From an uncultured Clostridia bacterium (GTDB taxonomy: Bacteria; Bacillota; Clostridia; TANB77; CAG-508): DNA of 64,000 bases. Within the stretch, counting starts at the first letter, position 1. Every line of letters begins with the position of its first letter. The DNA lies in assembly GCA_947594845.1 (NCBI GenBank), contig CANQEI010000006.1:2320-66319 (forward strand), written 5' to 3'. Under the pieces are notes generated by a model. It was not told the origin of the DNA, made no database searches, and saw nothing but the letters and a program-made list of their open reading frames with translations. The position numbers and the translations under genes were made by a program. Below are positions 1-38,860 of this stretch, piece by piece.

Positions 1-4
1 AAAT

Positions 5-1459: not shown

Positions 1460-1472
1460 AGAAGGAGAAATT

Positions 1473-4148: not shown

Positions 4149-4294
4149 AGCTTAAAAAATATCAAAATTAAAATTGTTTTTGTTGAGTAGATTTTACGAG
4201 TGTTCATAGAATGAAATAATTCTAAAAAGTATTCCTTTTTTTTATCTTTTATGATAGAATATGACAAAATATAAGTACTTTGGAGGTAGTAATT

Positions 4295-4537
4295 ATGGAA
4301 TTTAAGAAATGCCCTCGTTGTGGAAACTTTTTTCATTCAGATTTGGAAGTTTGCCAAAATTGTAAAACTAATGAGATTTTAGATATGCAAAAATTTAGAA
4401 GTTATATTGAAACAAATGGAATTAGAGCTTGTGAAAATGTTCAACAAATGTCTGTAGATACGGGAATTAATTCAAAAAATTTAAATAGATATTTACTTAA
4501 TGATGAATTTTCAGAAATGGTAAACAATAAATTATAA
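4295..4537 (+). CDS. Small zinc-ribbon protein (CPRC...CQNC), possibly YvyF/TIGR03826-like
   Basis: MEFKKCPRCGNFFHSDLEVCQNCK followed by a helical tail. A GGAGG RBS lies just upstream of ATG 4295. The family assignment is tentative. Confidence 0.6.
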   Translation: MEFKKCPRCGNFFHSDLEVCQNCKTNEILDMQKFRSYIETNGIRACENVQQMSVDTGINSKNLNRYLLNDEFSEMVNNKL

Positions 4538-4564
4538 TTGCAAAATTGGAAAGGGAAAAATTAA

Positions 4565-5776: not shown

Positions 5777-5820
5777 AGTTTTACATATAACTTAAGAAAA
5801 AATAGAAGGGATTAATTTGG

Positions 5821-6786
5821 ATGAAAAAAATTTTTAGCACATTATTTCCATTAATTATGATGATAATTGCTTCTATTGCTTGTGCTGGAATATATATGTT
5901 TTTTACAAATAAGTTTGGACAAAAAGATATCCAAAATAATGTAAATGCAAATCAAAACGTAGTTAAAGACGATAGTTCTGTAGTTTTATCAGAAGAAGAA
6001 CTACCAAGATTGGAATCTTCTGTTTCAGCTAAGCCTCTAGCAAATGCTATTGTTGTAGATTTTACTCAAAATAAAAACTTATCTGAAACAGTTTTAGATT
6101 ATTCTGCTGATGATAAAGGTTATGAAAAATTATTAAATGGACAAGTCGATATATTAATAGCAACAGAGCCTTCAAATGAAGTTTTATCACTGGTACAAGC
6201 TAGTGGTGCTGAGCTTGATATGCAATTAATTGCAAAAGAAGGTTTTGTTTTTTATGTCAATAGTAAGAATCCGGTTGATTCTTTGGAAGTTTCAGAAATT
6301 CAACAAATATATACGGGAAGAATTAGTAACTGGTCTCAAGTTGGAGGAAAAGATGAAGATATAATGCCTTTTCAAAGAGTGGAAGGTTCTACAGACCAAC
6401 GTCAAATGATATCTAAGGTTATGAAAAGTTTAACTTTAATGTCTCCACCAATGTATAATTTTAGAGACAAAGTATATGGAAATATTAATGATGTTGTTGC
6501 AACATATGATAATTCTGAAAATGCTATAGGATATTCATTAAGTTACCAGGCTAATATAATGTATGATTCTGATGATACAACAAGTGATCCAATTAAGTTT
6601 TTGAAAATTAATAACTTTGAACCAAACTATGATAATATAAAAAATGAATCATATCCTTTTATAACAAATTATTATTTGGTGAAGTTAAAAAATAATAATA
6701 ACGAATATATAGATGCCTTTACACAAGCTGTTTTTTCTGATAGAGGAAAAAGAATTATAAAGGAGGCTGGATATATTGATAATTAA
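5821..6786 (+). CDS. PstS/PBP-like substrate-binding protein, membrane anchored, with no transporter partner adjacent
   Basis: N-terminal TM segment. 'VDILIATEPSNE', 'EGFVFYVNSKNPV...ISNWSQVGG' and 'FQRVEGSTDQ' resemble phosphate-binding PBP_like_2 proteins. Confidence 0.5.
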   Translation: MKKIFSTLFPLIMMIIASIACAGIYMFFTNKFGQKDIQNNVNANQNVVKDDSSVVLSEEELPRLESSVSAKPLANAIVVDFTQNKNLSETVLDYSADDKGYEKLLNGQVDILIATEPSNEVLSLVQASGAELDMQLIAKEGFVFYVNSKNPVDSLEVSEIQQIYTGRISNWSQVGGKDEDIMPFQRVEGSTDQRQMISKVMKSLTLMSPPMYNFRDKVYGNINDVVATYDNSENAIGYSLSYQANIMYDSDDTTSDPIKFLKINNFEPNYDNIKNESYPFITNYYLVKLKNNNNEYIDAFTQAVFSDRGKRIIKEAGYIDN

Positions 6787-8281
6787 TAGAAATACAAAAA
6801 TATTTTTAATTGTCTTTTCAGTAATCCTTTTAATTTGTACTATTACGATTATTGTATATACAAGGACTCACGATGGTTTAGGAAGTTCACAAGTTATTAT
6901 TGAATCTGCACCTAAAACAATTACAAATTTAAATACAAATGTTGTTGAAAATAGTGATGATAGTACTACTAAAGGTGCAACTTTACAGGACTCTTATAAT
7001 AATAATAGAATAACATATAAATATAAAACTAGACAGAAAAACAATGTAGAAGTAACATATCCAGAAATTTCTGGATTAAGCAGTAGTAACATTAATAAAA
7101 GTATTAATGATCAAATTAATGAAAGAATAGATAGGATTTTGGATAGTAATACTTTTAAAAATAATTCAGATTCATCAGCATATGTTTCTGCTACAGTTGC
7201 TTCAAATTTTTCTGATGTGCTATCTGTAAAAATTTTTGTAAAATTTACAGATAATTTTAGTAAAAATTATGGTGTGAATTTTAGGCTAGATGATGGAACT
7301 AGATTAAAGATAGATGATTTATTTACTAAAAATGCACCAAAGAAAAATATTATTACATTTTCAGCATATAGAAGCTTTGCACTTGATTACTATACTGAGG
7401 ATGGCATATCTAATGAATTTTATACTAATATAGAATCAGATATATGGAATTTTTTAACAGAATATAATAGCGGAAAAGTTACAGAATTTTCTTTTACTCC
7501 CCAAATTATAGAATTATACAGGGAAGGAAGAACAATAAAAATATATATGCAGGATTATTACCAATATATAGCAATATATAACAAATATAAAACGTCAAGT
7601 GATATATATGAAGATAGTTATCACAATGGTAAGGATATACCTATTTTTGTTCAAAGACCAAATACAATATATGATTTATATGAAAAGCCAAATGAAACTT
7701 GTTGTATAGATGTTGTTATATTTGATAAAAAAGGAAAAAATGACTTTTCTGAAAAGGAAATGAAAATTATAAAAGAGTATAGAAATAGTTTATATTCAAG
7801 ATTGGACACGATTAGAAGAGAACAAAATGTATTTTATTCAAATTATGTTTCTGTTGAGAGAAAAAAAGAAGATGGCAAGGATATATTAGTATTTTATGAA
7901 GATGAAAGATATGCTACAATAGATGAAAACTTTGAGAACAAAATTTATAATATAATATTATCTGCTCAAAGAGATGTAAATAGCGATAATAATCCAGAAA
8001 GTAAAATTAATGAGTTAGATGAGAATATGATAGGTTCTGCTTCTGTTGAGAGAAAATTTGATATTGAAACAGGAAGTGAAATTGTTGAAGAAGTAGAAGA
8101 GCCTCAACCCGAAGAAGAAAATCAAAATACCACAAATAATACTATAAATCAAACTGATACTACGAATAATACTGTTACAAATCAGACAACAAATTCAACA
8201 AGTAATACAGTTACAAATAGTACTGAACAAGGGAATAATACCAATACTAATGGTGAAATTGATGCAAGAGTATCTTTTTAA
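6776..8281 (+). CDS. Single-pass membrane protein with a DUF4163/DUF3298 (RsiV/PdaC-type) module and an N/T-rich tail
   Basis: TTG start 9 nt after AGGAGG (6761-6766), overlapping the upstream stop. 'VEVTYPEISGLSSSNINKSINDQINERI' and 'FRLDDGTRLKIDDLF' match the family pattern. The tail is N/T low complexity. Confidence 0.6.
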   Translation: MIINRNTKIFLIVFSVILLICTITIIVYTRTHDGLGSSQVIIESAPKTITNLNTNVVENSDDSTTKGATLQDSYNNNRITYKYKTRQKNNVEVTYPEISGLSSSNINKSINDQINERIDRILDSNTFKNNSDSSAYVSATVASNFSDVLSVKIFVKFTDNFSKNYGVNFRLDDGTRLKIDDLFTKNAPKKNIITFSAYRSFALDYYTEDGISNEFYTNIESDIWNFLTEYNSGKVTEFSFTPQIIELYREGRTIKIYMQDYYQYIAIYNKYKTSSDIYEDSYHNGKDIPIFVQRPNTIYDLYEKPNETCCIDVVIFDKKGKNDFSEKEMKIIKEYRNSLYSRLDTIRREQNVFYSNYVSVERKKEDGKDILVFYEDERYATIDENFENKIYNIILSAQRDVNSDNNPESKINELDENMIGSASVERKFDIETGSEIVEEVEEPQPEEENQNTTNNTINQTDTTNNTVTNQTTNSTSNTVTNSTEQGNNTNTNGEIDARVSF

Positions 8282-8304
8282 TTTTTTTGTAAAAGGAGAG
8301 GTAA

Positions 8305-9153
8305 ATGTTTTTATTTAAAATAAAAACCTATGCTTTTATTGGTCCATCTGGAACAGGAAAAAGCTACAGAGCTCAATACGTGGCAAGTCAGAGAGATATA
8401 AAATATATAATTGATGATGGATTATTAATTAAAGAAAATCAAGTTATTGCTGGAACTTCTGCAAAAAAGGCTCCAACTAAAATAGAGACAGTAAGAAATG
8501 CTTTATTTGGCGTTGAAGAAAGAAAAATTGAAGCACAAAAAGCAATAAGAAAATATAGACCGGATTCAATTTTGATATTAGGAACATCTGATGAAATGGT
8601 TGATAAGATTGCACATAATCTAGAATTACCACCGATTTCTGAAAGAATATATATTAACGAAGTTGCTACTCAAGAAGAAATGGATACTGCAAGAAGAATT
8701 AGAGTAATGCAGGGTAAACATGTTATACCAGTACCAACTTTTGAAATAAAAAAAGATTTTTCAGGATATTTGTTGGATCCTTTACAAATTTTTAAATCAA
8801 AAGGTAAAAATGCGGAACCATATGTAGCAGAAAAATCTATAATTAGACCAACTTTTAGTTACTTAGGCAATTTTACAATTTCAGATAGTGTGTTTAAAGA
8901 TATTATTGTTACAGTTGCTAAAAAAGTTAAATCTGTTTATAAAATATTAAAAATTAGAGTAGATAAAACGCAAACTGACACTGCTGGGGTTCAACTTTAT
9001 ATAGAAGTGTCAATAGAGTATGGGGCAAATATGATGGAAACATTACGCTTATTGAAGAAAGAGACTAGAAGAGAAATAGAAAATTTAACTGCTATGTATA
9101 TATCAAGTGTTGATATTGTTGCAAAACAGATTCATTTTCCTGAAGAAAATTAA
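8305..9153 (+). CDS. P-loop NTPase fused to a C-terminal Asp23/Gls24-like domain
   Basis: Walker A 'GPSGTGKS' at residues 13-20. The C-terminal ~110 aa ('TISDSVFKDIIVTVAKKV...VQLYIEVSIEYGANMMETLRLLKKETRREIENLTAM') look like alkaline-shock Asp23-family proteins. Confidence 0.5.
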   Translation: MFLFKIKTYAFIGPSGTGKSYRAQYVASQRDIKYIIDDGLLIKENQVIAGTSAKKAPTKIETVRNALFGVEERKIEAQKAIRKYRPDSILILGTSDEMVDKIAHNLELPPISERIYINEVATQEEMDTARRIRVMQGKHVIPVPTFEIKKDFSGYLLDPLQIFKSKGKNAEPYVAEKSIIRPTFSYLGNFTISDSVFKDIIVTVAKKVKSVYKILKIRVDKTQTDTAGVQLYIEVSIEYGANMMETLRLLKKETRREIENLTAMYISSVDIVAKQIHFPEEN

Positions 9154-9173
9154 AATGAGAGGAAGAGTAAAAA

Positions 9174-9833
9174 ATGATAGTAGCAATAGATGGACCTGCT
9201 GGAAGTGGGAAAGGAACAGTTACAAAAATTATATCTCAAAGAATGGGGTTAGTTAACTTAGATACAGGAGCGACGTATAGGTGTGTTGCACTTGCTAGTT
9301 TGAGAGCAGGACTTACTTTAAATGATGAAGAAAAAATTGTTGATTTAATTGATTCATTAGATATTGAGTTAGAGCATCAAAATGGAGAAATAAAGGTATT
9401 CTTGAATGGTGAAGATGTTTCAAAAGAAATTAGATCTTCAGAGGTTACATCAATAGTTTCACAAGTTTCTTCAATAGTGCCAGTCAGATTAAAAATGGTG
9501 GATTTACAGAGAAAGTTAGCCAAAGGAAAGAATGTTATAATGGAAGGTAGAGATATTGGTACATATGTTTTTCCAAATGCTGAAGTAAAAATATATTTAG
9601 ATGCTGATGTTGAAGAAAGAGCAAGAAGAAGATTTAAAGAAAATCAGGAAAAAAATATAAGTTGTACTTATGAAAGTGTGTTAGACAATATAAAAAAGAG
9701 AGATGAAAATGATAAACATAAAGAGATTGGCTCACTTAGAGTAGCAGATGGGGCTATAATTGTAGATTCAACTAATATGACAATAGAAGAAGTTGCTGAC
9801 AAAGTTGAAAAAATAATTTTAGAAGCTAAATAG
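9174..9833 (+). CDS. cmk: Cytidylate kinase
   Basis: 'IAIDGPAGSGKGTV', 'LDTGATYR' and 'EGRDIGT'. Confidence 0.95.
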   Translation: MIVAIDGPAGSGKGTVTKIISQRMGLVNLDTGATYRCVALASLRAGLTLNDEEKIVDLIDSLDIELEHQNGEIKVFLNGEDVSKEIRSSEVTSIVSQVSSIVPVRLKMVDLQRKLAKGKNVIMEGRDIGTYVFPNAEVKIYLDADVEERARRRFKENQEKNISCTYESVLDNIKKRDENDKHKEIGSLRVADGAIIVDSTNMTIEEVADKVEKIILEAK

Positions 9834-9842
9834 GAGAAAAAA

Positions 9843-10457
9843 GTGGAAATAATAAGAAAAATTATTAGTTTTATTTTAAAACCGATATGCTATATTTTAG
9901 CCTTAATTATATATAGAGTAAAAATAGAAGGACTTGAAAATGTCCCTAAAAATAGTGCTTGCGTAATATGTGGAAACCATGTGCATGCAATGGATGCACC
10001 TGTATTATTAGCTACGGCTAATAGAAAAATTAGATTTATGGCAAAAGAAGAGCTATGGAAAAGTATTGGATTTAGATTTATGGCTTTTTTGTATAAGGTT
10101 TTTCCAGTAAAGCGTGGAAAAAATGATTCAGAGGCAATAAAAGTAGCTTTTAAAATACTAAAAAATAATGAAATTTTAGGTATGTATCCTGAAGGAACAA
10201 GAAATGGTTTAGCAAGAAATATAAAACCTAAAAATGGTGCAGTTAATATTGCAATAAGGGCTAATGTACCAATTATTCCTTTTGGAGTTGATGGAACTTT
10301 TAAGCCTTTTAAAAAGGTTACATATAGATTTGGAAAACCATTGGATTTTTCAGAATATAAAGATAAAGTAAAAGATAAAGAAGTATTAGATAAACTTACA
10401 AAAGACGTTATGGATAAAGTGATTGAGTTAAGAGATAATAAAGTAAAAGAAGCATAA
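9843..10457 (+). CDS. plsC: 1-acyl-sn-glycerol-3-phosphate acyltransferase
   Basis: GTG start after AGGAG. HX4D motif 'NHVHAMDAP' and 'YPEGTR'. Confidence 0.85.
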   Translation: MEIIRKIISFILKPICYILALIIYRVKIEGLENVPKNSACVICGNHVHAMDAPVLLATANRKIRFMAKEELWKSIGFRFMAFLYKVFPVKRGKNDSEAIKVAFKILKNNEILGMYPEGTRNGLARNIKPKNGAVNIAIRANVPIIPFGVDGTFKPFKKVTYRFGKPLDFSEYKDKVKDKEVLDKLTKDVMDKVIELRDNKVKEA

Positions 10458-10486
10458 ATATAGTAAGCTAAAAATTAAATATAGAC

Positions 10487-10532
10487 AAATAAAGAAACTT
10501 AAAATACTTATTTTAGGTTTCTTTATTTTTAT
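10487..10532 (+). terminator. Rho-independent terminator after plsC
   Basis: Perfect 12-bp stem AAATAAAGAAAC (10487-10498) / GTTTCTTTATTT (10517-10528) followed by T residues. Confidence 0.7.
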
Positions 10533-10636
10533 ATTAGAAACAGAAATGTAAAAGAAATGTTATTGCTGTGAAATAGAATACTAAAAAAAATTATACTATA
10601 ATGGACTTAAAGTTTATTATAAGGAGAATTAGACTT

Positions 10637-10801
10637 ATGGATGAAGAAGAAATAGAACTAATGAAAAAAATTGATGAACAGTTAGAAATTAATAACCAGT
10701 TAGAAAGAGAAATTGAAGAAATAGATAGACAAATAGTTGACCATGAAATGAGTATAAGGCAAGCTAATGAAACATTGAAAAATATAAAAAAGGAATTTTA
10801 A
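10637..10801 (+). CDS. 54-aa acidic coiled-coil protein, unknown function
   Basis: AGGAG at 10622-10626 precedes ATG 10637. The track start at 10601 sits on a TATAAT-like box. The sequence is heptad-like and E/I/K-rich. Confidence 0.55.
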   Translation: MDEEEIELMKKIDEQLEINNQLEREIEEIDRQIVDHEMSIRQANETLKNIKKEF

Positions 10802-10803
10802 TA

Positions 10804-11124
10804 ATGAAAAATAATCAATTAACTGTCGTCCATGAAAATTTTTTCTCAAAGATAATAAACAAATTAAAAAATATATTTTGTAGAAAGAAAGTTCAAAATT
10901 CAAATAATAAAGTACAAGAAAATAAAGATTCAAAAGAAGAATTAATAAAAAAATTATCAAATTTGAAGGAAGAGCACATCGAACTACAAAATAAATATGA
11001 TGAATATATTATAAAATTGAAGGATGCTAGATTAAGAGAATTGAATTTAACTCTGAAAATATATCAAATGCAAGAATTTTATCTAAAAAAAATAAAAGAG
11101 GATAAACTTAATGCTTTAAAATAG
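10804..11124 (+). CDS. 106-aa coiled-coil protein with an N-terminal amphipathic basic helix, unknown function
   Basis: Starts 2 nt after the upstream stop. 'FFSKIINKLKNIFCRKK' is followed by a charged helical region. Confidence 0.6.
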   Translation: MKNNQLTVVHENFFSKIINKLKNIFCRKKVQNSNNKVQENKDSKEELIKKLSNLKEEHIELQNKYDEYIIKLKDARLRELNLTLKIYQMQEFYLKKIKEDKLNALK

Positions 11125-11135
11125 GAGTTTTATTA

Positions 11136-13571
11136 ATGAGTAAATATAATGAAAGAAAAATAAAATCAGCTGTAAAAAAGATAAAAGAATGTGTAGGGAA
11201 AGAATACAAAAATGCTATAGAAGAAGTTGCTAATGACTATTATGGTAATTATGATTCAGAAGAAAATGTTCTTTTAAGAGATTATTTAATGCAACAGGTT
11301 TTAAGATTACAGCCAGTTGCCAATTATGTAAGAAATAATCCAGATTTAAGTAGTATGAATTTACTACATATGAATTTTTACGAAATAATGCATTTGGCAA
11401 AATCTAAAAAAATGGTGGAATTACAAAATTGTGAAGAATTGGTAGATAGAGCTGTAATAGAAACAAAAGCATATTTGCAAAAAGATGAATTAAGAAATTG
11501 GAATGATAATAGTTCTGGAATTTATGATCCTAATAGCAATCTTCCATTTGGAAATTATTTAGTAAATGGTGTGCAAAATTTTATTTTTGCAAAACCAGAA
11601 GATACTTTAGATTCGTTGCTTATTTCAGCTAGATATTTTCGTAATTCAGGTTTATTAAGAAGATATAATATTTCTCTTTTTGGTGAGGATCCTTCTATTT
11701 CTAAAAATATTTCTAGAACTTTGATGGACTTATATCATTTAACACCAGAAATAGAAAAAAATATAATGCAAGATCCTAAAAAATTACTTATTTTAGAGAA
11801 AGTTTATGCTTCAATGAGTGAATTTAAGTATGAAAAAAGGTATTTAGATCATGAAATAGAGGCATTAAGAAAGAAATTCCCAGAATTAGAAGGGGATAAA
11901 TCTAAAAGTGTATTAGTATATAGAAGTGGAATTATAGGTTCTGATGGAAATATATCAGCTAAAAACAGATATGAAGAATATGATGAATTAGAACATATTC
12001 AAATGGGTTCTAAAAAATCTATTGAAACTCCTTTTATATCTGTAACAGAAAGTTCGTTAGTATTGCCTGTATATAACCTATCTAATAGAGATAGCAGATC
12101 TGAACAGGAAGTCCCAATGATAATAGATATAAGGAAAATATATGAATTATTATTAAAACGACAAAAAGAATTAGAGACAACAGACTTTCAATATGATGGG
12201 GAAAGTGATTTATTAGAAATATTGGCTGATGAAATTGATTATTCAGATGATATACATCAATATAAATTAATTGAAAGATTAGAAAAAATAGATTTATTAG
12301 AAAGCTATGAAAAACGTTTAGATTTACCAGAGGGATTTTTTGATAGAGAAGAGATTCCAACAGGATTAGCAGGTCAGACTAGAAATTATGCTTTTTCATC
12401 TGCTGAATTATTATTTAAGTCTTCTATACCACAAGAGGCTGTAACAGTAATAAATCCAATGCTAATGGATGTATTAGTAAGCTTATCTAATATTCCAAGC
12501 AAGGATAATATGACAAGTGAAAGCACAAAGATACAAGAAATAAAAAATGATTTATTGAAGAATATAGTAAGTAAAAAATTAATGCCTCAAGCAATTAATG
12601 AGGCAATTGCTAATAATCCGGATAAGTTTGGGTTAAATAATGTAGAGGCAGAATTTTTAGAAAGATTTTATATTCAAGAAGAATCTACTAGTAATTATCT
12701 TCATGTGCCTGCTTTAGAAGATGCATTAACAAAAGATGAAAAGGATAAGGTAGATACTTTAATTGCAATATCTGCTAGAGATATAGGTACTTTAGCTGAA
12801 AAAAATATATCTATAGATAATGCTGGTAATCTTAAACTAAGAATAATTTCGGAGCTTGAAGCTGCAGGTGTCATGACTAAAGGAGAAATACGATTAATTG
12901 AAATGGGAACGAAGTTAAAAGATATAGATGCTTTAAGATATAGAGAAATGGAAATGGGATTTAGAACTGATGTAATAAGAAAATTGTTGTCAAATGATGA
13001 TTTTTTAGATTATATTGGTATAGATTTAAAAAAGTATAATTTATCAAAAGAAGCTTTTATGAATTTATTAGGAAATTTAGTACAGGTATCTACAGAAAAA
13101 CCTGTTCCTAAACATGCTAGATACGATAGAATGGGTGCAGAAACAGTTACAGAAAATCAAGAAAATGAAATTTATAAGATGGCAAAAGATAGAGCCAAAG
13201 TTAAAGGAATAATAAGTGGTGATGGGCTAGTTTTTGTTACTTCTGAGGAATTTGCTAGTAAATTAAAAGTTGATAATGCTAAAACTGATGCAACGGTAAG
13301 AAATGCTAAAACAGTTCCAGAGGGATTAGAAACTGATTTACAAAGTGGAACAGGGACAATACTTTCTAAACATTATTATGTAACTTCTGATACGAAACAA
13401 GAACGTTATGGAGGACCTGATATACGTTATTCTAAATTGAACAGAGGAATGGATATAATTCTTCCATTTGGAATAGCTTATAGATCGAAAACGGCGGCTG
13501 ATAAATTAAGAAGAACTGCAATGTATTTCTTAAGAGAAGATAGACAAAATATAGAACAGGCAACAAAGTGA
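11136..13571 (+). CDS. 811-aa cytoplasmic protein with no recognisable family
   Basis: Long uninterrupted ORF tightly following the two small genes. It has no signal peptide or TM segment, and I could not recognise Walker, HExxH or nuclease motifs. Confidence 0.8.
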   Translation: MSKYNERKIKSAVKKIKECVGKEYKNAIEEVANDYYGNYDSEENVLLRDYLMQQVLRLQPVANYVRNNPDLSSMNLLHMNFYEIMHLAKSKKMVELQNCEELVDRAVIETKAYLQKDELRNWNDNSSGIYDPNSNLPFGNYLVNGVQNFIFAKPEDTLDSLLISARYFRNSGLLRRYNISLFGEDPSISKNISRTLMDLYHLTPEIEKNIMQDPKKLLILEKVYASMSEFKYEKRYLDHEIEALRKKFPELEGDKSKSVLVYRSGIIGSDGNISAKNRYEEYDELEHIQMGSKKSIETPFISVTESSLVLPVYNLSNRDSRSEQEVPMIIDIRKIYELLLKRQKELETTDFQYDGESDLLEILADEIDYSDDIHQYKLIERLEKIDLLESYEKRLDLPEGFFDREEIPTGLAGQTRNYAFSSAELLFKSSIPQEAVTVINPMLMDVLVSLSNIPSKDNMTSESTKIQEIKNDLLKNIVSKKLMPQAINEAIANNPDKFGLNNVEAEFLERFYIQEESTSNYLHVPALEDALTKDEKDKVDTLIAISARDIGTLAEKNISIDNAGNLKLRIISELEAAGVMTKGEIRLIEMGTKLKDIDALRYREMEMGFRTDVIRKLLSNDDFLDYIGIDLKKYNLSKEAFMNLLGNLVQVSTEKPVPKHARYDRMGAETVTENQENEIYKMAKDRAKVKGIISGDGLVFVTSEEFASKLKVDNAKTDATVRNAKTVPEGLETDLQSGTGTILSKHYYVTSDTKQERYGGPDIRYSKLNRGMDIILPFGIAYRSKTAADKLRRTAMYFLREDRQNIEQATK

Positions 13572-13575
13572 ATAC

Positions 13576-13604
13576 TTGAAAAATAGACCCAAATATGGTA
13601 TAAT
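13576..13604 (+). promoter_or_regulatory. Sigma-A-type promoter with extended -10
   Basis: TTGAAA (13576-13581), 17-nt spacer, TGgTATAAT (13596-13604). Confidence 0.6.
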
Positions 13605-13648
13605 AAATTGATTGCATAGGCAATTATTTTAAAAGGAGGGAACCATAC

Positions 13649-13951
13649 ATGTATACGGACAAACAAGCAGAAATCATTGAACGTATCCAAAAAAATTTTT
13701 ACGAAATTTGCAACCAGAAAGGAGTGCCAAATCCAGCCAATACCATTGCTTACGAGCGAGACATTTCTTTACTTTGTAGTGACGAATTTTTTACTCCAGA
13801 GGTTTTGAATTTTGCAATGGATTTGATGTGGAAATTGTCTGACCAACGAGAGAAAAATGATACAATGAATCTTGCCATGTTAGAAGAAATGACCTATGCT
13901 AATTTCCGAATTGGACCTTCCTATAATGAAAAAGAAGGGAATCCAAGCTAA
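13649..13951 (+). CDS. 100-aa hypothetical protein in the higher-GC block
   Basis: AAAGGAGGG RBS. Higher G+C than the surroundings. Has its own promoter and terminator. Confidence 0.65.
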   Translation: MYTDKQAEIIERIQKNFYEICNQKGVPNPANTIAYERDISLLCSDEFFTPEVLNFAMDLMWKLSDQREKNDTMNLAMLEEMTYANFRIGPSYNEKEGNPS

Positions 13952-13964
13952 AGATTCTCGCAAA

Positions 13965-14001
13965 AGGTGGCTGACCCCAAAAGGTCAGCCTTCCTTTTTT
14001 T
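13965..14001 (+). terminator. Rho-independent terminator (GC-rich stem)
   Basis: GGCTGACC (13969-13976) / GGTCAGCC (13983-13990), followed by TTCCTTTTTTT. Confidence 0.8.
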
Positions 14002-14107
14002 ATAACAATGCTAGTATATTATTTATAAAAATTTTGACATAAGGTGTAGATTTTAGAAAAATCGAATGAGAGATAGAATTTATTCAATGTTCTGGTATGT
14101 AGTTAAA

Positions 14108-14136
14108 TTGACTTTAAATAACGAAAATGGTATAAT
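14108..14136 (+). promoter_or_regulatory. Sigma-A-type promoter with extended -10
   Basis: TTGACT (14108-14113), 17-nt spacer, TGgTATAAT (14128-14136). Confidence 0.6.
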
Positions 14137-14184
14137 TATTATGTAAAACTGCATGCAAAAATTCAGAAGAGGAGATGAAACTCA

Positions 14185-14811
14185 ATGGCACAGAGATTAG
14201 CTTTCTATGTTAGGGAACAAAAGGTTTATGCAAAGATGGTTGATTTCGAATGGGTTCCCGGTTTGAGTGTGACTCAGAAGAAAAAATCCATCGCAAATTT
14301 ACATGGAAAACTTGATGGCATGGCACTTGAGGTAAGCACCAAAAGCAGTGAAAACATTGGATTAAAGCTGAGTGCATTCAACTTACACCTGGATGGAAGT
14401 GCACTTGAAAATGTTTTTCAATCCTCAAAATGCTTTACGATGGGAGGACCGTATAGAGATTTGTTAACTGTTTCCCCTAAAGAAGCAAAGCGGGATGAAA
14501 GGCTAAAGTCCTCTGGACGTTTGATTGGTTTTAACTACAATGATGAGATGTGGAAATTGGAGCCCAAAACGGCTTTTTATGACTACATATACATCAAAGC
14601 AGTAAAGGAATCTATTGAACCGGAAGAAATTCAACAAGTGATGAACTATGAATATTTCACGGATATAGAATTTAATCCTAAAAAATCAATCAATACTCAA
14701 CAGAGGAGTGTCGCTATCATCAAAGCTATGTTACAAATGTGGGGAAAAATTCCTGAAGAAATGAACAGAACAGATTTCCTTGCGTTTCACCGCTACATCG
14801 TGAGAGCATGA
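14185..14811 (+). CDS. 208-aa hypothetical protein in the higher-GC block
   Basis: GAGGAG RBS. G+C about 40% on sampled lines. I recognise no family motif. Confidence 0.7.
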   Translation: MAQRLAFYVREQKVYAKMVDFEWVPGLSVTQKKKSIANLHGKLDGMALEVSTKSSENIGLKLSAFNLHLDGSALENVFQSSKCFTMGGPYRDLLTVSPKEAKRDERLKSSGRLIGFNYNDEMWKLEPKTAFYDYIYIKAVKESIEPEEIQQVMNYEYFTDIEFNPKKSINTQQRSVAIIKAMLQMWGKIPEEMNRTDFLAFHRYIVRA

Positions 14812-14852
14812 AAAAGGAAGGGAAGGGCACAATGCCCTTCTTTTCCTTTTTT
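14812..14852 (+). terminator. Rho-independent terminator (GC-rich stem)
   Basis: AAAAGGAAGGGAAGGGC / GCCCTTCTTTTCCTTTT with loop ACAAT, followed by TT. Confidence 0.8.
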
Positions 14853-14897
14853 ATAGACTAAACTTGTAATTTGAGTTTTTAAATATAATAAAATCGC

Positions 14898-14926
14898 TTG
14901 ACATTGTAAAAATACTGATGTATAAT
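14898..14926 (+). promoter_or_regulatory. Consensus sigma-A promoter for rpmF
   Basis: TTGACA (14898-14903), 17-nt spacer, TATAAT (14921-14926). Confidence 0.7.
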
Positions 14927-14997
14927 CTTTAATGTTACTGAAACTGTAAGAAATTAATATGTATATAAATACTAGAAATAGCAAGGAGGGAATATAA

Positions 14998-15186
14998 ATG
15001 GCACAACCAAAAAGAAGATGGTCTAAAGCTAGAACAGGTTTAAAAAGATCAACTTGGAAAATTGAAGAAAAGAATTTAGCTACTTGTCCACATTGCCACG
15101 AACCAGTTATGCAACATAGAGTATGTTCAAATTGTGGATATTATAATGGTAAAGAAGTAGTAGCAGTTAAAACAGATAAAAAATAA
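14998..15186 (+). CDS. rpmF: 50S ribosomal protein L32
   Basis: 'MAQPKRRWSKARTG' N-terminus and the CPHC...CSNCG zinc-knuckle form of L32. Confidence 0.95.
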   Translation: MAQPKRRWSKARTGLKRSTWKIEEKNLATCPHCHEPVMQHRVCSNCGYYNGKEVVAVKTDKK

Positions 15187-15196
15187 AATAAAAAAA

Positions 15197-15226
15197 GGAA
15201 CACATTGCATATGTGTTTTTTTTTTG
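15197..15226 (+). terminator. Rho-independent terminator after rpmF
   Basis: GAACACAT / ATGTGTT stem followed by a run of about 10 T. Confidence 0.7.
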
Positions 15227-15320
15227 CCTAAAATAAAAAGCATTTTGGTTGAAATTTGTATAAATATATTATAAAATGTATTTGCTTATGAAAATAGTTT
15301 TACTTAGAAAGGAATAAAAA

Positions 15321-16649
15321 ATGGCTAAACCAGTAGTTGCTATTGTTGGAAGACCAAATGTTGGAAAATCTACATTTTTTAATTACATAGTAGGTCAAAG
15401 AATCTCTATAGTAGAAGATACTCCAGGAGTTACAAGAGATAGAGTTTATGCAGAGTCAAGTTGGAGAGGTAGAGATTTTACTGTGATTGATACTGCAGGG
15501 ATAGAAGAATTAACAGGTGATGTTATTGAAAATCAAATGAGAGAACAAGTTGATATTGCTATATCAGTTGCAGATGTAATAATATTTTTGACAGATATTC
15601 GTCAAGGTGTTACTTCTGCTGATGAAGAAATAGCAATATTATTAAAAAAGGCTAAAAAACCTGTTGTTCTTGTATGTAATAAAGCAGATAATTTTGGTAA
15701 AACTCCTGATGATATATATGAATTTTATAATTTAGGACTTGGAAATCCAATTCCTCTTTCTGCAACAAATGCTATTGGAGTTGGAGATGTTTTAGATGCT
15801 ATATATGAAAATTTTCCAGAAGAAAAGGACGACGATTCTGATCCAGAAGTTATAAAAGTTGCTATTATAGGAAAGCCTAATGTTGGAAAATCTTCTTTAG
15901 TAAATAAAATATTAGGAGAAAATAGAGTTATTGTAAGTGATGTCGCAGGCACGACTCGTGATGCTATAGATTCAGAATTTCAAAATGAACTTGGGAAATA
16001 CATCTTTATAGATACAGCAGGAATTAGAAGAAAAAGTAAAGTAAAAGAAAATATTGAAAAATACAGTGTAATGAGATCTAATTTGGCTATAGAAAGAGCT
16101 GATGTTTGTATTATGATGATTGATGCAACAGAAGGAATATCTGAGCAAGATTCTAAAATAATTGGTGAAGCTCATGAAGCTGGAAAAGGAATTATTATTG
16201 CGGTAAATAAATGGGATGAAGTTGCAAAAGACAATCGTACTACTGAGAAGTTTAAAAAAGAAATATATAATGAATTACCTTTTGCTACATATGCACCAAT
16301 AATTTTTATTTCAGCTAAAACTGGTCAAAGAGTAAATAATTTGTTTGAATTAATTAATAATGTTGCAAGTCAGAATGCATTAAGAATATCTACTGCTGTT
16401 TTGAATCAAGTTATAAATGAGGCTATTGCTGTTGTTCAACCACCTACAGACAAAGGAAAACGTCTTAAAATATTTTATGGTACGCAGGCAACAACTAAAC
16501 CACCAACTTTTGTTATTTTTGTTAATAAAAAAGAATTATTTCATTTTTCATATGAAAGATATTTAGTAAATTGCATAAGAAATAATTTTGGTTTGGAGGG
16601 AACTCCAGTTAGAATAATTGTGCGTGAAAGAAAAGAAAAGGAGGAATAG
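15321..16649 (+). CDS. der: Ribosome-associated GTPase Der/EngA
   Basis: Two tandem GTPase domains ('GRPNVGKST', 'GKPNVGKSS', DTAG, NKxD) plus a KH-like C-terminus. Confidence 0.96.
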   Translation: MAKPVVAIVGRPNVGKSTFFNYIVGQRISIVEDTPGVTRDRVYAESSWRGRDFTVIDTAGIEELTGDVIENQMREQVDIAISVADVIIFLTDIRQGVTSADEEIAILLKKAKKPVVLVCNKADNFGKTPDDIYEFYNLGLGNPIPLSATNAIGVGDVLDAIYENFPEEKDDDSDPEVIKVAIIGKPNVGKSSLVNKILGENRVIVSDVAGTTRDAIDSEFQNELGKYIFIDTAGIRRKSKVKENIEKYSVMRSNLAIERADVCIMMIDATEGISEQDSKIIGEAHEAGKGIIIAVNKWDEVAKDNRTTEKFKKEIYNELPFATYAPIIFISAKTGQRVNNLFELINNVASQNALRISTAVLNQVINEAIAVVQPPTDKGKRLKIFYGTQATTKPPTFVIFVNKKELFHFSYERYLVNCIRNNFGLEGTPVRIIVRERKEKEE

Positions 16650-16651
16650 AT

Positions 16652-17266
16652 ATGGCAATATATATATTAGTAATATTAGTTTCATATCTTATAGGTAGCA
16701 TTAGTTTTTCTGTAATTTTTACAAAAAGATTAGCAGGTTTTGATGTAAGAGAAAAAGGCAGTGGAAATGCAGGTAGTACAAATGTACTTCGTACAGCAGG
16801 AAAAGGAATTGCAGCATTAACTCTTGTGTGTGACATATTAAAAGGAGTAGTAGCTGTTTTATTAGCAAAAATTATTGGAGCAATAGATGGAGTAGAACAT
16901 CCTGAATATTTAGTTCAAATAGCTGGATTAATGGTTGTAATTGGACATACTTTTCCTATATTTTTTAAATTTAAAGGTGGAAAAGGTGTTGCTACAAGTT
17001 TAGGGATTATATTACTAATTAATTGGCAAATAGGATTGATATGTTTAGTATTTGCACTAGTATTAATGATATTAACTAGAATGGTTTCTTTAGGTTCTGT
17101 TGCAGCAGCTATTTTATTTCCGGTATTAACTATATTCATTACAGAAAATTATATTGTTCCAGGAGATTATAAAATTTTTGGAATTTTATTAGGAATATTT
17201 GTATGCTTTAATCATAGAAGTAATATAAAAAGACTTCTTAAAGGTACAGAAAATAAATTATGGTAA
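16652..17266 (+). CDS. plsY: Glycerol-3-phosphate acyltransferase PlsY
   Basis: 'GSGNAGSTNVLR' and 'FKGGKGVAT' in a multi-TM protein. Sits in the conserved der-plsY-gpsA order. Confidence 0.95.
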   Translation: MAIYILVILVSYLIGSISFSVIFTKRLAGFDVREKGSGNAGSTNVLRTAGKGIAALTLVCDILKGVVAVLLAKIIGAIDGVEHPEYLVQIAGLMVVIGHTFPIFFKFKGGKGVATSLGIILLINWQIGLICLVFALVLMILTRMVSLGSVAAAILFPVLTIFITENYIVPGDYKIFGILLGIFVCFNHRSNIKRLLKGTENKLW

Positions 17267-17285
17267 AGCGAAAGGAAAAAATTAT

Positions 17286-18269
17286 ATGAAAAAAATTGCA
17301 ATTATAGGGAGTGGCAGTTGGGGAGTAGCCCTTGCTATTTATTTAGCTAATCAAGGAAATGATATTAAACTTTGGTCTTTTTCTGAAGAAGAAAAAGATT
17401 TAATAAATAACGAAAAGAGATGTAAATTTCTAAAAGATGTAGTTATACCAGAACATGTTTATTGTTCTACAAATATGGAAGAAGTTATTGATGATACTGA
17501 GATAATTTTTCATGTAACTCCATCTAAATTTACAAGAAATGTAGTAAAACAGTATAAACCTTATATTAAAGAACAACCTGTTATTATTTGTTCAAAAGGA
17601 TTTGAATCAGAAACATTAAAAACACTAGATGATGTCTTAGAAGAAGAACTTCCAAATAATAAAATTGGTGTTCTTTCTGGACCAAGTCATGCAGAAGAAG
17701 TATCAATTTCAATACCTACAGCTTTAGTTGCTGCTTCAAAACATACAGAATTATCTGATTATGTTGTAGATCTTTTTAAGAGTGATATAATGAGACTTTA
17801 TACTTCTACAGATGTAAAAGGAGTTGAATTGGGAGGAGCTCTTAAAAACATTATTGCTTTTTGCGCAGGAGTTTCTGCTGGATTAGAATTAGGAGATAAC
17901 TCTTTTGCTGCATTGTTAACTAGAGGATTAGTAGAAATTTCTAGATTAGGAACAGCATTAGGAGGAAAGAAAGAAACTTTTTATGGATTAAGTGGTCTTG
18001 GAGATTTAATTGTTACTTGCGGAAGTTTACATAGTAGAAATAGAAAAGCTGGCTTTTTAATTGGAAAAGGATATACTATTGAAGAAACTAGAAAAGAAGT
18101 TGGAATGACAATAGAAAGCATAGATAACATAGAAGTTGCATATAAACTTGCTAAAATGCATAACATAGAAGTACCAATTATTAATACTGTTTATGAAGTA
18201 TTATTTAATAAATTAGATCCTAGAGAGGCTGTAACAATGCTTATGACTAGAGATCTAAAAGAAGAGTAA
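17286..18269 (+). CDS. gpsA: NAD(P)H-dependent glycerol-3-phosphate dehydrogenase
   Basis: 'IGSGSWGVALA' and 'GALKNIIAF'. Confidence 0.95.
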   Translation: MKKIAIIGSGSWGVALAIYLANQGNDIKLWSFSEEEKDLINNEKRCKFLKDVVIPEHVYCSTNMEEVIDDTEIIFHVTPSKFTRNVVKQYKPYIKEQPVIICSKGFESETLKTLDDVLEEELPNNKIGVLSGPSHAEEVSISIPTALVAASKHTELSDYVVDLFKSDIMRLYTSTDVKGVELGGALKNIIAFCAGVSAGLELGDNSFAALLTRGLVEISRLGTALGGKKETFYGLSGLGDLIVTCGSLHSRNRKAGFLIGKGYTIEETRKEVGMTIESIDNIEVAYKLAKMHNIEVPIINTVYEVLFNKLDPREAVTMLMTRDLKEE

Positions 18270-18280
18270 AGGATGGTTTT

Positions 18281-18826
18281 ATGGGATTCTTTGAAGATTT
18301 GGGTAAGAAAGTAAATGAAACAACTGCTAGTTTTCAAGAGACAACAAATAGAATAGAAAAAGAAAATAAATACAAAAAGACAATATCACAGAACAATAAA
18401 AAAATTGATGCGATTTATATTGAAATTGGAAAAAAGGTTTATGAATCAGATAAAAATGATAAATCTGCTATAAGTTTTATTGATGCAAGAAAAAAAGAAA
18501 TTTCAGAGATTTTAACTGAAAATGATAAATTGCAAACTGAAATTTTAGACTTGAATAATAAGAAAAGATGCTCAAATTGTGGAAAAGAGATTGAAAAAAA
18601 TGCGCCATTTTGTACTTATTGTGGAGAAAAACAAGAAGTACCAAAAGAAAATATTCCAGATGGAAAGAAAAAGTGTTCAAAGTGTGGAGAAATAATTGAT
18701 GATACTAATGTATTTTGCCCAAATTGTGGAACTAAATGTACCAATATAGGAGATGAAGAAGTGGCAAAAGTTGTTGAAGTTGATGAAATGGCAGAAGCAG
18801 ATGAACAAAAAAAGGTAGATAAGTAA
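18281..18826 (+). CDS. Double zinc-ribbon protein with an N-terminal helical region
   Basis: CSNCG...CTYCG and CSKCG...CPNCG pairs. Confidence 0.65.
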   Translation: MGFFEDLGKKVNETTASFQETTNRIEKENKYKKTISQNNKKIDAIYIEIGKKVYESDKNDKSAISFIDARKKEISEILTENDKLQTEILDLNNKKRCSNCGKEIEKNAPFCTYCGEKQEVPKENIPDGKKKCSKCGEIIDDTNVFCPNCGTKCTNIGDEEVAKVVEVDEMAEADEQKKVDK

Positions 18827-18827
18827 A

Positions 18828-19265
18828 ATGAAATTAGTTGTACAAAGAGTAAATAATGCTAGTGTTACTATAGATAAAGAAATAGTAGGAAAAATAGATA
18901 AAGGGCTTTTAGTATTACTTGGAGTTACTCATTCTGATACAAGAGAAAATGCAGATTTTTTAGTTAAAAAATTGTGTAATCTTCGTATATTTCAAGATGA
19001 GAATGAAAAGATGAATTTATCAGTAAAAGATATAAATGGTGAATTATTAATAGTATCTCAATTTACATTGTATGCAGATTGTAAAGGCGGAAATAGGCCT
19101 AGCTTTATTGAGAGTGCTAAACCTGATTATGCAAATGAATTGTATGAATATTTTGTTGAACAATGTAGAAAACAAGTAAGAAAAGTTGAAACAGGCGAGT
19201 TTGGTGCTCATATGGATGTAAGTATTTTAAATAATGGACCAGTCACAATCATATTGGAGAAATAA
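18828..19265 (+). CDS. dtd: D-aminoacyl-tRNA deacylase
   Basis: 'MKLVVQRV', 'SQFTLYAD' and 'NNGPVT'. Confidence 0.95.
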   Translation: MKLVVQRVNNASVTIDKEIVGKIDKGLLVLLGVTHSDTRENADFLVKKLCNLRIFQDENEKMNLSVKDINGELLIVSQFTLYADCKGGNRPSFIESAKPDYANELYEYFVEQCRKQVRKVETGEFGAHMDVSILNNGPVTIILEK

Positions 19266-19541
19266 TTAAATAGGATATCTTTCATAAATATATTTTATTA
19301 TTTCACTAATATTTGAGCTTGTTACTTTTATAAAAATATCTTCATCTAAATTTACCCAAACAGAAATATTGTATTGATCACTATTATCAACAACTACAGA
19401 AATTAAATCAATTAATTTTGCAGGGTCATCAAAGGAAAAAATTTCCGTTGACATTTGATTATGGTAGTTGTAAAATTTGTTTAAGAAATTTGATAGCATA
19501 CTTTTATCAGAACAATATAAATGAACACATGGTTTCTTCAT
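19266..19541 (-). CDS. 91-aa hypothetical protein
   Basis: One of only two credible minus-strand ORFs. Its stop codon abuts the dtd stop with zero spacing. GGAG lies upstream of the ATG on the minus strand. Confidence 0.5.
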   Translation of the reverse strand: MKKPCVHLYCSDKSMLSNFLNKFYNYHNQMSTEIFSFDDPAKLIDLISVVVDNSDQYNISVWVNLDEDIFIKVTSSNISEIIKYIYERYPI

Positions 19542-19629
19542 AGCAATCTCCTTAAAATTAGATTTATATTAGTTTTTACCAAAAAAGCAGTAAAAAATTA
19601 AAAAAAATCAAAAAAAAGGGAAAAAAAGC

Positions 19630-19657
19630 TTGCATTGTGATTATATTATGTTATAAT
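19630..19657 (+). promoter_or_regulatory. Promoter with extended -10 for the 117-aa LPXTG gene
   Basis: TTGCAT (19630-19635), 16-nt spacer, TGtTATAAT (19649-19657). Preceded by phased A-tracts. Confidence 0.55.
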
Positions 19658-19694
19658 ATTAATGTATGAATTATTGAAATGAAGGAGTAGAAGG

Positions 19695-20048
19695 ATGAAA
19701 AGAACAAATAAATTAAAAATATTAACAGTAATTTTAATGGCAATAATAGTTATTTGTACAGCTAGAATGACATTTGCAGCACAAATTACAACTATACCAG
19801 GAAGCTCAGGAAATTCAGCAGGAAACAATACAGTTAACAATTTAAGTAGTAATAATACACCAGAAAATAATGTAGTTCCTAATAATACTTTAAATACAAC
19901 AAACTATAATAATGTTGTAAACAATACTCAAAATACAACATTACCAAAAACTGGTGCTGAGTTATCTGTTGGTTTAGTAGGTTTAATTTCATTTGTTTCA
20001 ATTTCTGCTATTTATACATATATAAAAGTTAAAAAATATAATATTTAG
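19695..20048 (+). CDS. Small LPXTG-anchored surface protein (signal peptide, N/T-rich stalk, sorting signal)
   Basis: N-terminal signal peptide. 'LPKTGAE' followed by a hydrophobic segment and a KVKK tail. Confidence 0.75.
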   Translation: MKRTNKLKILTVILMAIIVICTARMTFAAQITTIPGSSGNSAGNNTVNNLSSNNTPENNVVPNNTLNTTNYNNVVNNTQNTTLPKTGAELSVGLVGLISFVSISAIYTYIKVKKYNI

Positions 20049-38329: not shown

Positions 38330-38860
38330 ATGCCAGAAGCAATTGAAGTTACTAATATGAAAAAAAAATCAGACGACAGAGATTATGTATTAAAGGCAGT
38401 TAGTGAAAATGGAAAACTTTTAGAATTTGCAGAAGAAAAATTACATAATGATAGAGAAGTGGTGTTTACAGCTGTTAAAAATAATCCAGAAGCATTGGAA
38501 TTTGCAGGAAATAACCTAAGGAAAGATAGAGAAATTGTTTATGAATCAGTAAGTAAACTTGGGTGGACATATTGTTATGCAGATGAATCGCTAAAAGATG
38601 ATAAAGAGCTTTTAATGTCAGGACTTGAAAAGTCTGGCCAAATTTTATATTTTGCTTCACCCAAAATGAGGGATGATAAAGATGTTATTTTAAAAGCTAT
38701 AGAAGATAAACCTATTATTATAAAATATGCTAGTAAAAGGCTAAGAAGTGATATAGATGTAGGGATATCAGTTATGAATAAAAATAAAAAGTGTTTTAAA
38801 TTTTTAGAACCTGATTTACAAAATAATGAAAAGATTCAAGAAATTAAAAATGCAGAATAG
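38330..38860 (+). CDS. DUF4116 repeat protein
   Basis: Repeats of the type 'VLKAVSENGKLLEFAEEKLHNDREVV / FTAVKNNPEALEFAGNNLRKDREIV'. Confidence 0.65.
   Translation: MPEAIEVTNMKKKSDDRDYVLKAVSENGKLLEFAEEKLHNDREVVFTAVKNNPEALEFAGNNLRKDREIVYESVSKLGWTYCYADESLKDDKELLMSGLEKSGQILYFASPKMRDDKDVILKAIEDKPIIIKYASKRLRSDIDVGISVMNKNKKCFKFLEPDLQNNEKIQEIKNAE

Follow-up and report, generated by a model that had tools for sequence, protein, structure and literature searches.

A probable ADP-ribosyltransferase toxin module of gut Clostridia whose antidote half pairs a DarT1-type NADAR with a small predicted immunity protein

We analyzed a 64,000-nucleotide (nt) stretch of DNA (hereafter the window) from an uncultured Clostridia bacterium (contig CANQEI010000006.1, positions 2,320 to 66,319), which comes from a rabbit gut metagenome and whose nearest named genomes are Candidatus Scatovivens metagenome-assembled genomes. 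The work concerns a block at window positions 13572-14860 that carries two open reading frames (ORFs), ORF1 of 100 amino acids (aa; 13649-13951) and ORF2 of 208 aa (14185-14811); these and all other module features described below lie on the + strand. According to our in silico analysis, this block probably forms the antidote half of a toxin module of five genes at about 10568-14854. In the mechanism that we propose, an 811-aa toxin encoded upstream of the block would use an Arg-Ser-Glu (R-S-E)-type ADP-ribosyltransferase (ART) domain to modify guanine or other nucleobases in DNA or RNA, and the antidote would act in two layers. The fast-evolving ORF1 protein would bind the toxin and occlude its active site, as RhsFi does for RhsF-CT, and the product of ORF2, a NADAR hydrolase, would remove ADP-ribose from the bases that get modified nonetheless. 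Each layer would be expressed from its own near-consensus promoter and closed by its own terminator.

A first-pass annotation of the block had stated that neither protein matches a recognizable family. This proved wrong for ORF2, which matches Pfam PF22397, "DarT1-associated NADAR antitoxin", with 230.9 bits (cut-off 27) and E = 1.4e-68, over residues 2-184 of the protein and positions 1-194 of the 212 of the model. ORF2 also matches the NADAR structure of Geobacter lovleyi (PDB 8BAT; E = 4.5e-42). NADARs strip ADP-ribose from guanine in DNA or RNA, and some of them from cytidine (PMC11543638, PMC11833690, PMC12945103). In the NADAR of E. coli C7, mutagenesis showed that E88, K95, K115, and D171 are needed, the aspartate being specific to the subfamily and located in the last strand (PMC11543638). 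The residues of ORF2 that correspond to them, E75 (14407-14409), K82 (14428-14430), K102 (14488-14490), and D160 (14662-14664), are identical in the alignment of ORF2 with 8BAT and invariant in 14 relatives. Their spacings are 7, 20, and 58 residues, versus 7, 20, and 56 in the C7 protein, to which the correspondence was made by motif and spacing and not by direct alignment. ORF2 is thereby clearly predicted to be a DarT1-type NADAR ADP-ribosyl-guanine hydrolase with intact catalytic residues. DarT (PF14487) was found neither among the module proteins nor in ten other window ORFs of 155-301 aa, and the arrangement of known DarTG1 systems, with DarT adjoining the NADAR, is not that of the window locus.

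The 811-aa protein is encoded at 11136-13571 and belongs to a rare family, of which an exhaustive profile search of 1.84 billion proteins yielded 13 representatives. The motifs of the family core are an invariant Arg (VYR[SA]G), His, Ser-x-Thr ([FY][IL]S.T), and Glu (S.E[VIL]L[FI]K). In the window protein the putative catalytic residues are R263 (11922-11924), S302 (12039-12041), Y313 (12072-12074), and E424 (12405-12407); the Arg, Ser, and Glu are invariant in 12 family members and the Tyr is nearly so. A core profile made from 12 members matched PDB 9ZDM chain B (RhsF-CT) in two collinear segments with E = 1.2e-9, and S302, Y313, and E424 align with S1445, Y1456, and E1497 of RhsF-CT (counted in the printed alignment). 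R263 lies 39 residues ahead of the Ser, versus 42 in RhsF. RhsF-CT is the toxin domain of a Chromobacterium violaceum Rhs effector of the type VI secretion system (T6SS); toxicity is lost on mutating R1403, Y1456, or E1497, S1445 contributes, and the nearest structures to RhsF-CT are the guanine-specific ScARP and EcPltA (bioRxiv 10.64898/2025.12.06.692724).

Structure prediction pointed weakly in the same direction. An AlphaFold2 model of the core alone, residues 251-470 (11886-12545) with a helical insertion, reached a predicted local distance difference test (pLDDT) score of 77.5 and a predicted template-modelling score of 0.71, and the roughly 39 top PDB matches in Foldseek were ARTs (pertussis S1, EcPltA, CARDS, TreX, ParT, and others). 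The core was modelled on its own because the model of the whole protein, based on a 4-sequence alignment, was poor (pLDDT 52.9, below 50 in the catalytic region); its Foldseek matches were meaningless and it was discarded. The single 811-aa sequence and a 4-sequence full-length profile gave no match to PDB sequences, a fold search of the core against viral models (BFVD) gave weak matches only, a few of them ART-PolyVal, and a Joint Genome Institute metagenome scan for the toxin family returned nothing. The related Pfam model DUF7587 reached 29.2 bits (cut-off 27) in one family member, P0136, and stayed below threshold in six others, including the window protein (13.9 bits). We conclude that the 811-aa protein is a predicted R-S-E-type ART toxin. 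The ART domain occupies residues ~255-445 of the 811 and is N-terminal in short variants; a conserved C-terminal region of ~370 residues follows it. Rhs/YD repeats and the FIX domain had no matches in the family, whose architecture is not that of an Rhs/T6SS effector. In the sister species (locus L002, 7319-9908) the toxin gene is split into ORFs of 738 and 126 aa that overlap by 8 nt, the 126-aa piece corresponding to the C-terminal end of the window protein. Either the toxin has been frameshifted or truncated there, or the assembly is in error.

The assignment of the block to the toxin comes from comparison of loci. In the window, the genes between plsC and rpmF encode, in order, 54 aa, 106 aa, 811 aa, 100 aa, and the NADAR, and in related genomes the series recurs elsewhere on the chromosome, again with the NADAR gene last (60-72% identity to the window NADAR). 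The sister species L002 has the series at plsC-rpmF as well. L006 and L007 carry 55, 145, 850, and 99 aa and the NADAR after gatB, and L008-L011 carry 425, 138, and 90 aa and the NADAR. More distant members of the large-protein family, which came from the exhaustive profile search, are arranged alike: L097 has 390 and 102 aa and the NADAR between tsf and pyrH; L098 and L099 have 61, 67, 905, and 91 aa and the NADAR after ftsH; and L100 has 50, 94, 763, and 90 aa before its contig ends. L035 and L082 keep the order of the L097-L100 loci, and at L014 and L015 the large and small genes converge on the NADAR gene from the opposite strand. Where a toxin gene had enough flanking DNA (the window, L002, L006/7, L008-11/L013, L014, L015, L035, L082, L097, and L098/99), a gene of ~90-111 aa and a NADAR gene lay alongside it at 10 of 10 independent loci, which span five different positions on the chromosome and two orientations. 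The block had been described as an independent two-gene cargo that merely sits beside an operon; this linkage points instead to the antidote half of one module. Because the linkage to a DarT1-type NADAR is strict, we infer that the toxin ADP-ribosylates nucleobases, most likely guanine, in DNA or RNA.

Some loci have the antidote genes and no toxin. At the L006 site, L005 has only 55 aa, 127 aa, and the NADAR. Comparison of L005 7324-8627 with L006 4289-8627 shows the shared site after gatB; the toxin and the small immunity gene are gone in L005, which retains both genes for small helical proteins as well as the NADAR gene with its promoter. This looks like a natural toxin deletion that left the eraser. 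Sixteen Lachnospiraceae-type loci (L021, L024, L028, L034, L043, L047, L049, L051, L059, L063, L065, L066, L069, L071, L073, and L086) have a conserved ~94-aa gene upstream of the NADAR gene, directly adjacent in 15 of them; no toxin-core match was found within 8 kb, the ~94-aa gene has no family match, and the pairs are candidate orphan immunity pairs. Many NADAR genes of gut Clostridia that seem to stand alone may thus, like the small genes upstream of them, be orphan immunity genes. Together with the intermediate NADAR composition described below, the toxin-less loci fit an immunity pool in circulation.

No viral relative of the NADAR exceeds 49% identity; these relatives come with DarT and an integrase and lack toxin-core matches; canonical DarT-NADAR pairs among the relatives occur on (pro)phage contigs only. 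Carriage of the module by phages is unlikely. A toxin/antitoxin-like or defence pair, as guessed earlier, was roughly the right direction, and the alternative of an anti-defence (phage) role found no support in these viral relatives.

The first-pass annotation had described two self-contained promoter-gene-terminator units, and both were found. Promoter P2 of ORF1 (13576-13604) reads TTGAAA-17-TATAAT and promoter P3 of the NADAR gene (14108-14136) TTGACT-17-TATAAT; both have an extended -10 TG (TGgTATAAT) and a score of 11/12. Terminator T1 after ORF1 (13969-14000) has an 8-bp stem with 6 GC pairs and a T-run, its hairpin GGCTGACC/GGTCAGCC and T-run lying at 13969-13990. Terminator T2 after the NADAR gene (14808-14854) has 22-nt arms that are 86% complementary and a T-run, with the hairpin GAAGGGC/GCCCTTC and T-run at 14822-14840, and forms the downstream edge of the module, beyond which lies the rpmF promoter (14898-14926). 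The upstream edge is a terminator-like inverted repeat after plsC (10481-10534; 26-nt arms, 88% complementary, then a T-run), followed by the promoter-like region P1 of the toxin operon (10568-10602), with a weak -35 GTGAAA and a -10 region ATACTATAAT.

These elements are conserved. P1 elements ATACTATAAT and TG.AAT are also found ahead of the first gene of L002, L005, and L006, a homologue of that in the window; the P2 hexamers recur 5' of the ORF1 homologues in L002 and L006; the P3 pattern TTGACTTT...TG.TATAATTATTATGTAAA is kept in L002, L005, and L006; and a hairpin homologous to T2, GGAAGGGC/GCCCTTCC, stands 3' of the NADAR gene in L002. In L002 and L006 the block promoters are alike nearly base for base, and a terminator follows each gene. 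Since L006 occupies another place in the chromosome and yet keeps P2, P3, and the terminators, these are no chance matches; identity to the L006 proteins is only ~60%. No terminator separates the toxin gene from ORF1, and given this and the weaker promoter of the toxin operon, toxin transcripts probably read into ORF1. In the single RNA-seq (metatranscriptome) assembly in which this sequence occurs, only two separate contigs matched window positions 1-20000 at >95% identity, one over ORF1 (13666-13946) and one over the NADAR gene (14176-14502), which fits strong and separate transcription of the antidote genes, as weak evidence. The untranslated regions of the module gave nothing credible against Rfam. 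The 5' untranslated region of ORF1 contains a palindrome, TTGCATAGGCAA, at 13616-13640, which may be an operator or a small hairpin; L002 keeps TTGCATACGCAA and L006 does not. The spacer between the ORF1 homologue and the NADAR gene of L002 (10277-10869) measures 593 bp versus 233 bp in the window, and holds two minus-strand copies of a hairpin, GGAAATGCG[A/G]AGCATTTTC, 154 bp apart, which may be a small repeated insertion.

Two small genes open the module. The first (10637-10801) encodes a 54-aa coiled-coil protein; the mechanical ORF starts at 10601, and the ATG at 10637, behind the ribosome-binding site AAGGAG at 10621, agrees with the start of the homologues. The protein is 50-71% identical to the 55-59-aa products of the first genes of L002, L005, and L006. 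The product of the second gene (10804-11124) is likewise small and helical, with 106 aa, and its homologues are L002_110, L005_127, and L006_145. Neither has a family match, and neither they nor residues 1-250 of the toxin gave a Pfam match at E <= 0.1 (no LXG, DUF3130, DUF3958, or WXG100). Both occur only with long toxin variants that have an N-terminal extension, which they may partner.

How the toxin is deployed divides two readings that agree on the block itself. We give about an even chance to an exported antibacterial toxin. Export is favoured by the nearest characterized relative of the toxin, which is an interbacterial effector; by the gene order, in which genes for small helical proteins come first and immunity genes last, on either side of a large protein whose N-terminal extension is helical; by the co-occurrence of the small helical proteins with long variants; and by how common toxin-less antidote pairs are (the 16 Lachnospiraceae loci and L005), the antidote pool appearing mobile. 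The other reading, to which we assign somewhat less than an even chance, is an intracellular DarTG1-like toxin-antitoxin or abortive infection system, whose toxin is never exported and is released by phage or stress onto the cell's own or phage DNA. It draws on the role of DarT1-type NADARs as antitoxins of an anti-phage toxin-antitoxin system (PMC11543638, PMC11825919), on the position of the ART domain away from the C-terminus, on the lack of a detected secretion signal or trafficking domain in the 811-aa protein, and on a module that is self-contained and inserted among housekeeping genes. However, unlike in type II toxin-antitoxin systems, the antidote genes here lie downstream as separate units with strong promoters; the interbacterial effector just mentioned and the widespread toxin-less pairs, whose composition suggests exchange between hosts, also speak against it. 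PADLOC-DB 2.0 gave no match at E < 0.01 for any of the five module proteins (the two small helical proteins were at chance level, E = 0.013-0.085), which again does not favour the intracellular reading.

We propose that ORF1 acts specifically against this toxin, as an immunity protein or antitoxin that would bind the ART domain, judging from its position, size, and co-divergence with the toxin. Its precedent is RhsFi, which is helical, has a mass of 12 kDa, and occludes the active site of RhsF-CT (bioRxiv 10.64898/2025.12.06.692724). Searched singly and as a profile, ORF1 matched nothing in Pfam, NCBIfam, PADLOC, PHROGs, or PDB, and only two homologues were found by word search among 5.8 billion proteins. 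Mantel tests of pairwise similarity over nine loci showed that the small protein tracks the ART (rho 0.61, p = 1e-4), while the NADAR does not (rho 0.24, p = 0.12), and that small protein and NADAR do not track each other (rho 0.18, p = 0.12). This is as expected for a toxin binder and an enzyme that acts on the product. An alternative would make ORF1 a partner or regulator of the NADAR (for DNA targeting, or as a transcription factor), with the NADAR as the sole antidote. The small gene does lie directly 5' of the NADAR gene even at toxin-less loci, and the lack of detectable similarity to RhsFi would suit such a role. However, the small proteins diverge beyond recognition at loci where the NADARs remain 50-70% identical, they follow the ART and not the NADAR, and no DNA-binding domain was detected, so that we consider this alternative unlikely.

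The compositional anomaly that had been claimed for the block was borne out. Block 13572-14860 has 35.5% G+C, compared with a mean of 27.5% for the very AT-rich window (standard deviation 1.9% among segments as long as the block), which corresponds to z = 4.1 and is reached by only 0.08% of such segments; the three highest consecutive 500-bp G+C bins of the window are those of the block. The excess is at third codon positions, where G+C (GC3) is 0.337 in ORF1 and 0.383 in ORF2 versus 0.144 +/- 0.055 in 43 window ORFs, and cytosine at third positions is 0.17 in the block genes versus 0.03 in other window genes. The codons singled out as rare elsewhere are indeed enriched (per 1000, block versus rest: CCC 6.5 vs 0.2, CGG 3.2 vs 0.0, CTG 6.5 vs 0.3), and so are TCC (16 vs 0.3) and ATC (26 vs 2.5). 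No integrase, transposase, or flanking direct repeat was found at the block, as had been noted, nor an adjacent tRNA. The 811-aa gene has native composition (GC3 0.135), and the compositional boundary is therefore at ~13572 and not at plsC.

This odd composition is common to the loci of relatives and is a trait of the whole circulating gene family, which removes it as a sign of recent insertion. Of 64 NADAR loci, 11 are in low-GC hosts, and at 10 of these the NADAR GC3 exceeded the host value (mean +0.21); in the 53 higher-GC hosts it fell short of the host value 46 times (mean -0.12). The small upstream genes behave alike. At ten loci the GC3 of small gene and NADAR exceeds that of the adjoining toxin gene and of flanking genes; toxin genes occur in low-GC hosts only, with a composition that matches the host. 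Since GC3 is intermediate whatever the host, the simplest reading is that small gene and NADAR form a gene pool that circulates between hosts among gut Clostridia. Selection on GC3, for translational optimization or avoidance of a motif targeted by the toxin, was dropped as the main explanation because the ribosomal genes of the hosts lack the bias and NADAR GC3 falls below the host in high-GC hosts.

The horizontal origin proposed for the block is supported in this qualified form, while its recency is not. When the plsC-rpmF interval is compared in relatives, the sister species L002 holds the same genes at the same site; flanking proteins are 89-95% identical there, module proteins 38-72%, and the NADAR 72%. 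Four further samples of this species have an identical NADAR beside rpmF. Among 5.8 billion proteins the closest non-syntenic relative is 64% identical, and no relative anywhere exceeds 72%. Sequence comparison indicates that the window copy is old and not recently acquired. Diversifying selection may account for the fast divergence of the module, and so may replacement of alleles between promoters and terminators that serve as conserved anchors. A high-depth DNA contig of the source rabbit-gut metagenome (143x coverage versus 15-30x for the island) seems to join 10497 to 14982, skipping 4484 bp and linking the plsC 3' end directly to the rpmF ribosome-binding site; this could be an empty site in a co-resident relative, but the match on one side is only 23 nt and it was not used. 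In L093 (3-1289), which encodes an identical L32 protein, a repetitive LPXTG-like surface protein stands upstream of rpmF instead of the NADAR, so that close relatives differ in what precedes rpmF.

The view of the first-pass annotation, an independent and recently acquired foreign two-gene cargo without relation to the upstream operon, for example an orphan NADAR, next to an unrelated small gene, against DarT-like or other ADP-ribosylating attack from outside, can call on the compositional break exactly between the 811-aa gene and ORF1, on the separate promoters and terminators of both genes, on the toxin-less pairs, and on the intermediate NADAR composition in all hosts. The invariable adjacency of the pair to an RhsF-CT-like toxin gene, the co-divergence of the small protein with the toxin, the synteny in the sister species and fixation in the species, and the distance to any relative in another context make it quite improbable. 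A housekeeping NADAR/YbiA-type N-glycosidase (riboflavin intermediates, repair), next to which ORF1 is unrelated and the 811-aa gene incidental, is very improbable: most bacterial NADARs stand alone with other roles proposed for them (PMC11125620) and many of the 80 related loci have housekeeping neighbours, but ORF2 is of the DarT1-associated subfamily with its N-terminal extension and not YbiA, its linkage to the toxin family is invariant, and it evolves fast (72% versus 89-95% in the flanks).

Returning to the antidote half of a toxin module as the preferred reading, we tentatively extend it, as a doubtful possibility, to a mobile antidote cassette of Gram-positive gut bacteria: shared within the community, binder and NADAR eraser would move independently of the toxin, between hosts that differ widely in G+C content, and give acquired immunity to exported nucleobase-ADP-ribosylating toxins, RhsF included. 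If true, this cassette, with promoter, gene, and terminator travelling together, would be the first NADAR-based interbacterial immunity, and the RhsF-CT/DUF7587 toxin class would gain a nucleic-acid target.

Several points weigh against our interpretation. No similarity of ORF1 to RhsFi, or to another protein of solved structure, could be detected, and at least four families, not linked with significance, make up the syntenic small proteins: hhalign joined only families A and B (E = 0.006) and C and D (E = 8e-6), and the ORF1-family profile ranked the other small proteins near the top, not significantly. It is position, size, and co-divergence that assign them a common role. RhsF R1403 lies outside the aligned block, so that R263 is assigned by motif and spacing only. 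The ART fold matches are individually weak (best E = 0.046, template-modelling score about 0.3), probably because of the helical insertion of ~75 residues. The RNA evidence consists of assembled contigs of one run and may include DNA, and PADLOC recognized no defence system. As for deployment, the ART domain is central or N-terminal and not C-terminal as in classical polymorphic toxins, and no LXG, WXG100, Rhs, or signal-peptide feature was found in the module proteins.

Compared with known systems, the module combines features of several. It shares with DarT1-NADAR (PMC11543638) a PF22397 NADAR with the same catalytic residues and N-terminal extension, a NADAR gene beside that of an ART toxin, and the expected reversal of guanine ADP-ribosylation. 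It differs in that DarT (PF14487) is replaced by an unrelated R-S-E ART within an 811-aa multidomain protein, an extra small protein stands between toxin and NADAR, two helical proteins stand upstream, and the NADAR gene is a separate transcription unit instead of part of a two-gene operon. With RhsF-CT/RhsFi (PDB 9ZDM) it has in common the homologous toxin core with catalytic Arg, Ser, Tyr, and Glu, and a ~100-aa protein directly downstream, the plausible counterpart of the immunity protein. In contrast, the hosts here are Gram-positive, Rhs/YD repeats, FIX domain, and T6SS are absent, the toxin domain is central or N-terminal with its helical insertion and ~370-residue C-terminal region, and a NADAR eraser is added, from which a nucleobase substrate is predicted for RhsF-CT-like toxins.

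In myxobacteria, YarT-YbiA consists of an ART unrelated to DarT and a NADAR-superfamily antitoxin (Cihlova et al. 2024, PMC11125620), which sets a precedent for a NADAR-superfamily hydrolase countering a non-DarT ART. YarT, however, is a small His-Tyr-Glu (H-Y-E, ARTD-like) enzyme with a YbiA-subfamily NADAR, whereas here an R-S-E ART in a large protein goes with the DarT1 subfamily, whose NADARs were previously thought to be partners of DarT only (PMC11125620). The order of two small helical proteins, a large toxin with a helical N-terminus, and one or more immunity genes, in scattered self-contained loci without a Sec signal, resembles the LXG loci of the type VII secretion system (T7SS), except that our module has no LXG, DUF3130, DUF3958, or WXG100 Pfam match and its toxin domain is not C-terminal. 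LXG/T7SS toxin loci of Firmicutes have small Lap helper proteins upstream and the immunity gene downstream. No T7SS genes were seen in the 64-kb window. Tre1-Tri1, an ART effector pair of the Serratia T6SS said to have been described by Ting et al. in 2018, reportedly targets FtsZ, with Tri1 both occluding the toxin and hydrolysing its product. Here the two jobs that Tri1 does in one protein, on a protein target, would be divided between two separately transcribed genes, with a nucleobase eraser. The concept of ART immunity by active-site occlusion plus enzymatic removal is shared by Tre1-Tri1 and by PARG protection against RhsP2 (PMC11833690).

The literature that we searched holds no description of a NADAR with an RhsF-CT-like toxin or with Gram-positive secreted toxins. 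The module would join two separate recent discoveries, the NADAR guanine-ADP-ribose eraser and the RhsF-CT class of ART toxins; it yields the prediction that RhsF-CT-like enzymes modify nucleobases and suggests that DarT1-type NADARs are not confined to DarT partners. Its protection scheme would split toxin blocking and erasure of the modification between separate genes, each independently and strongly transcribed.

Two further genes of the window, both on the + strand, were noted. A single 4705-aa ORF of native composition (45876-59993) has one Pfam match, dockerin type I near the N-terminus (residues 249-301), and probably encodes a giant cellulosome-type or surface protein. A 176-aa protein (38330-38860) carries three DUF4116 repeats (E = 3e-41), which are more usual in giant viruses and protists.

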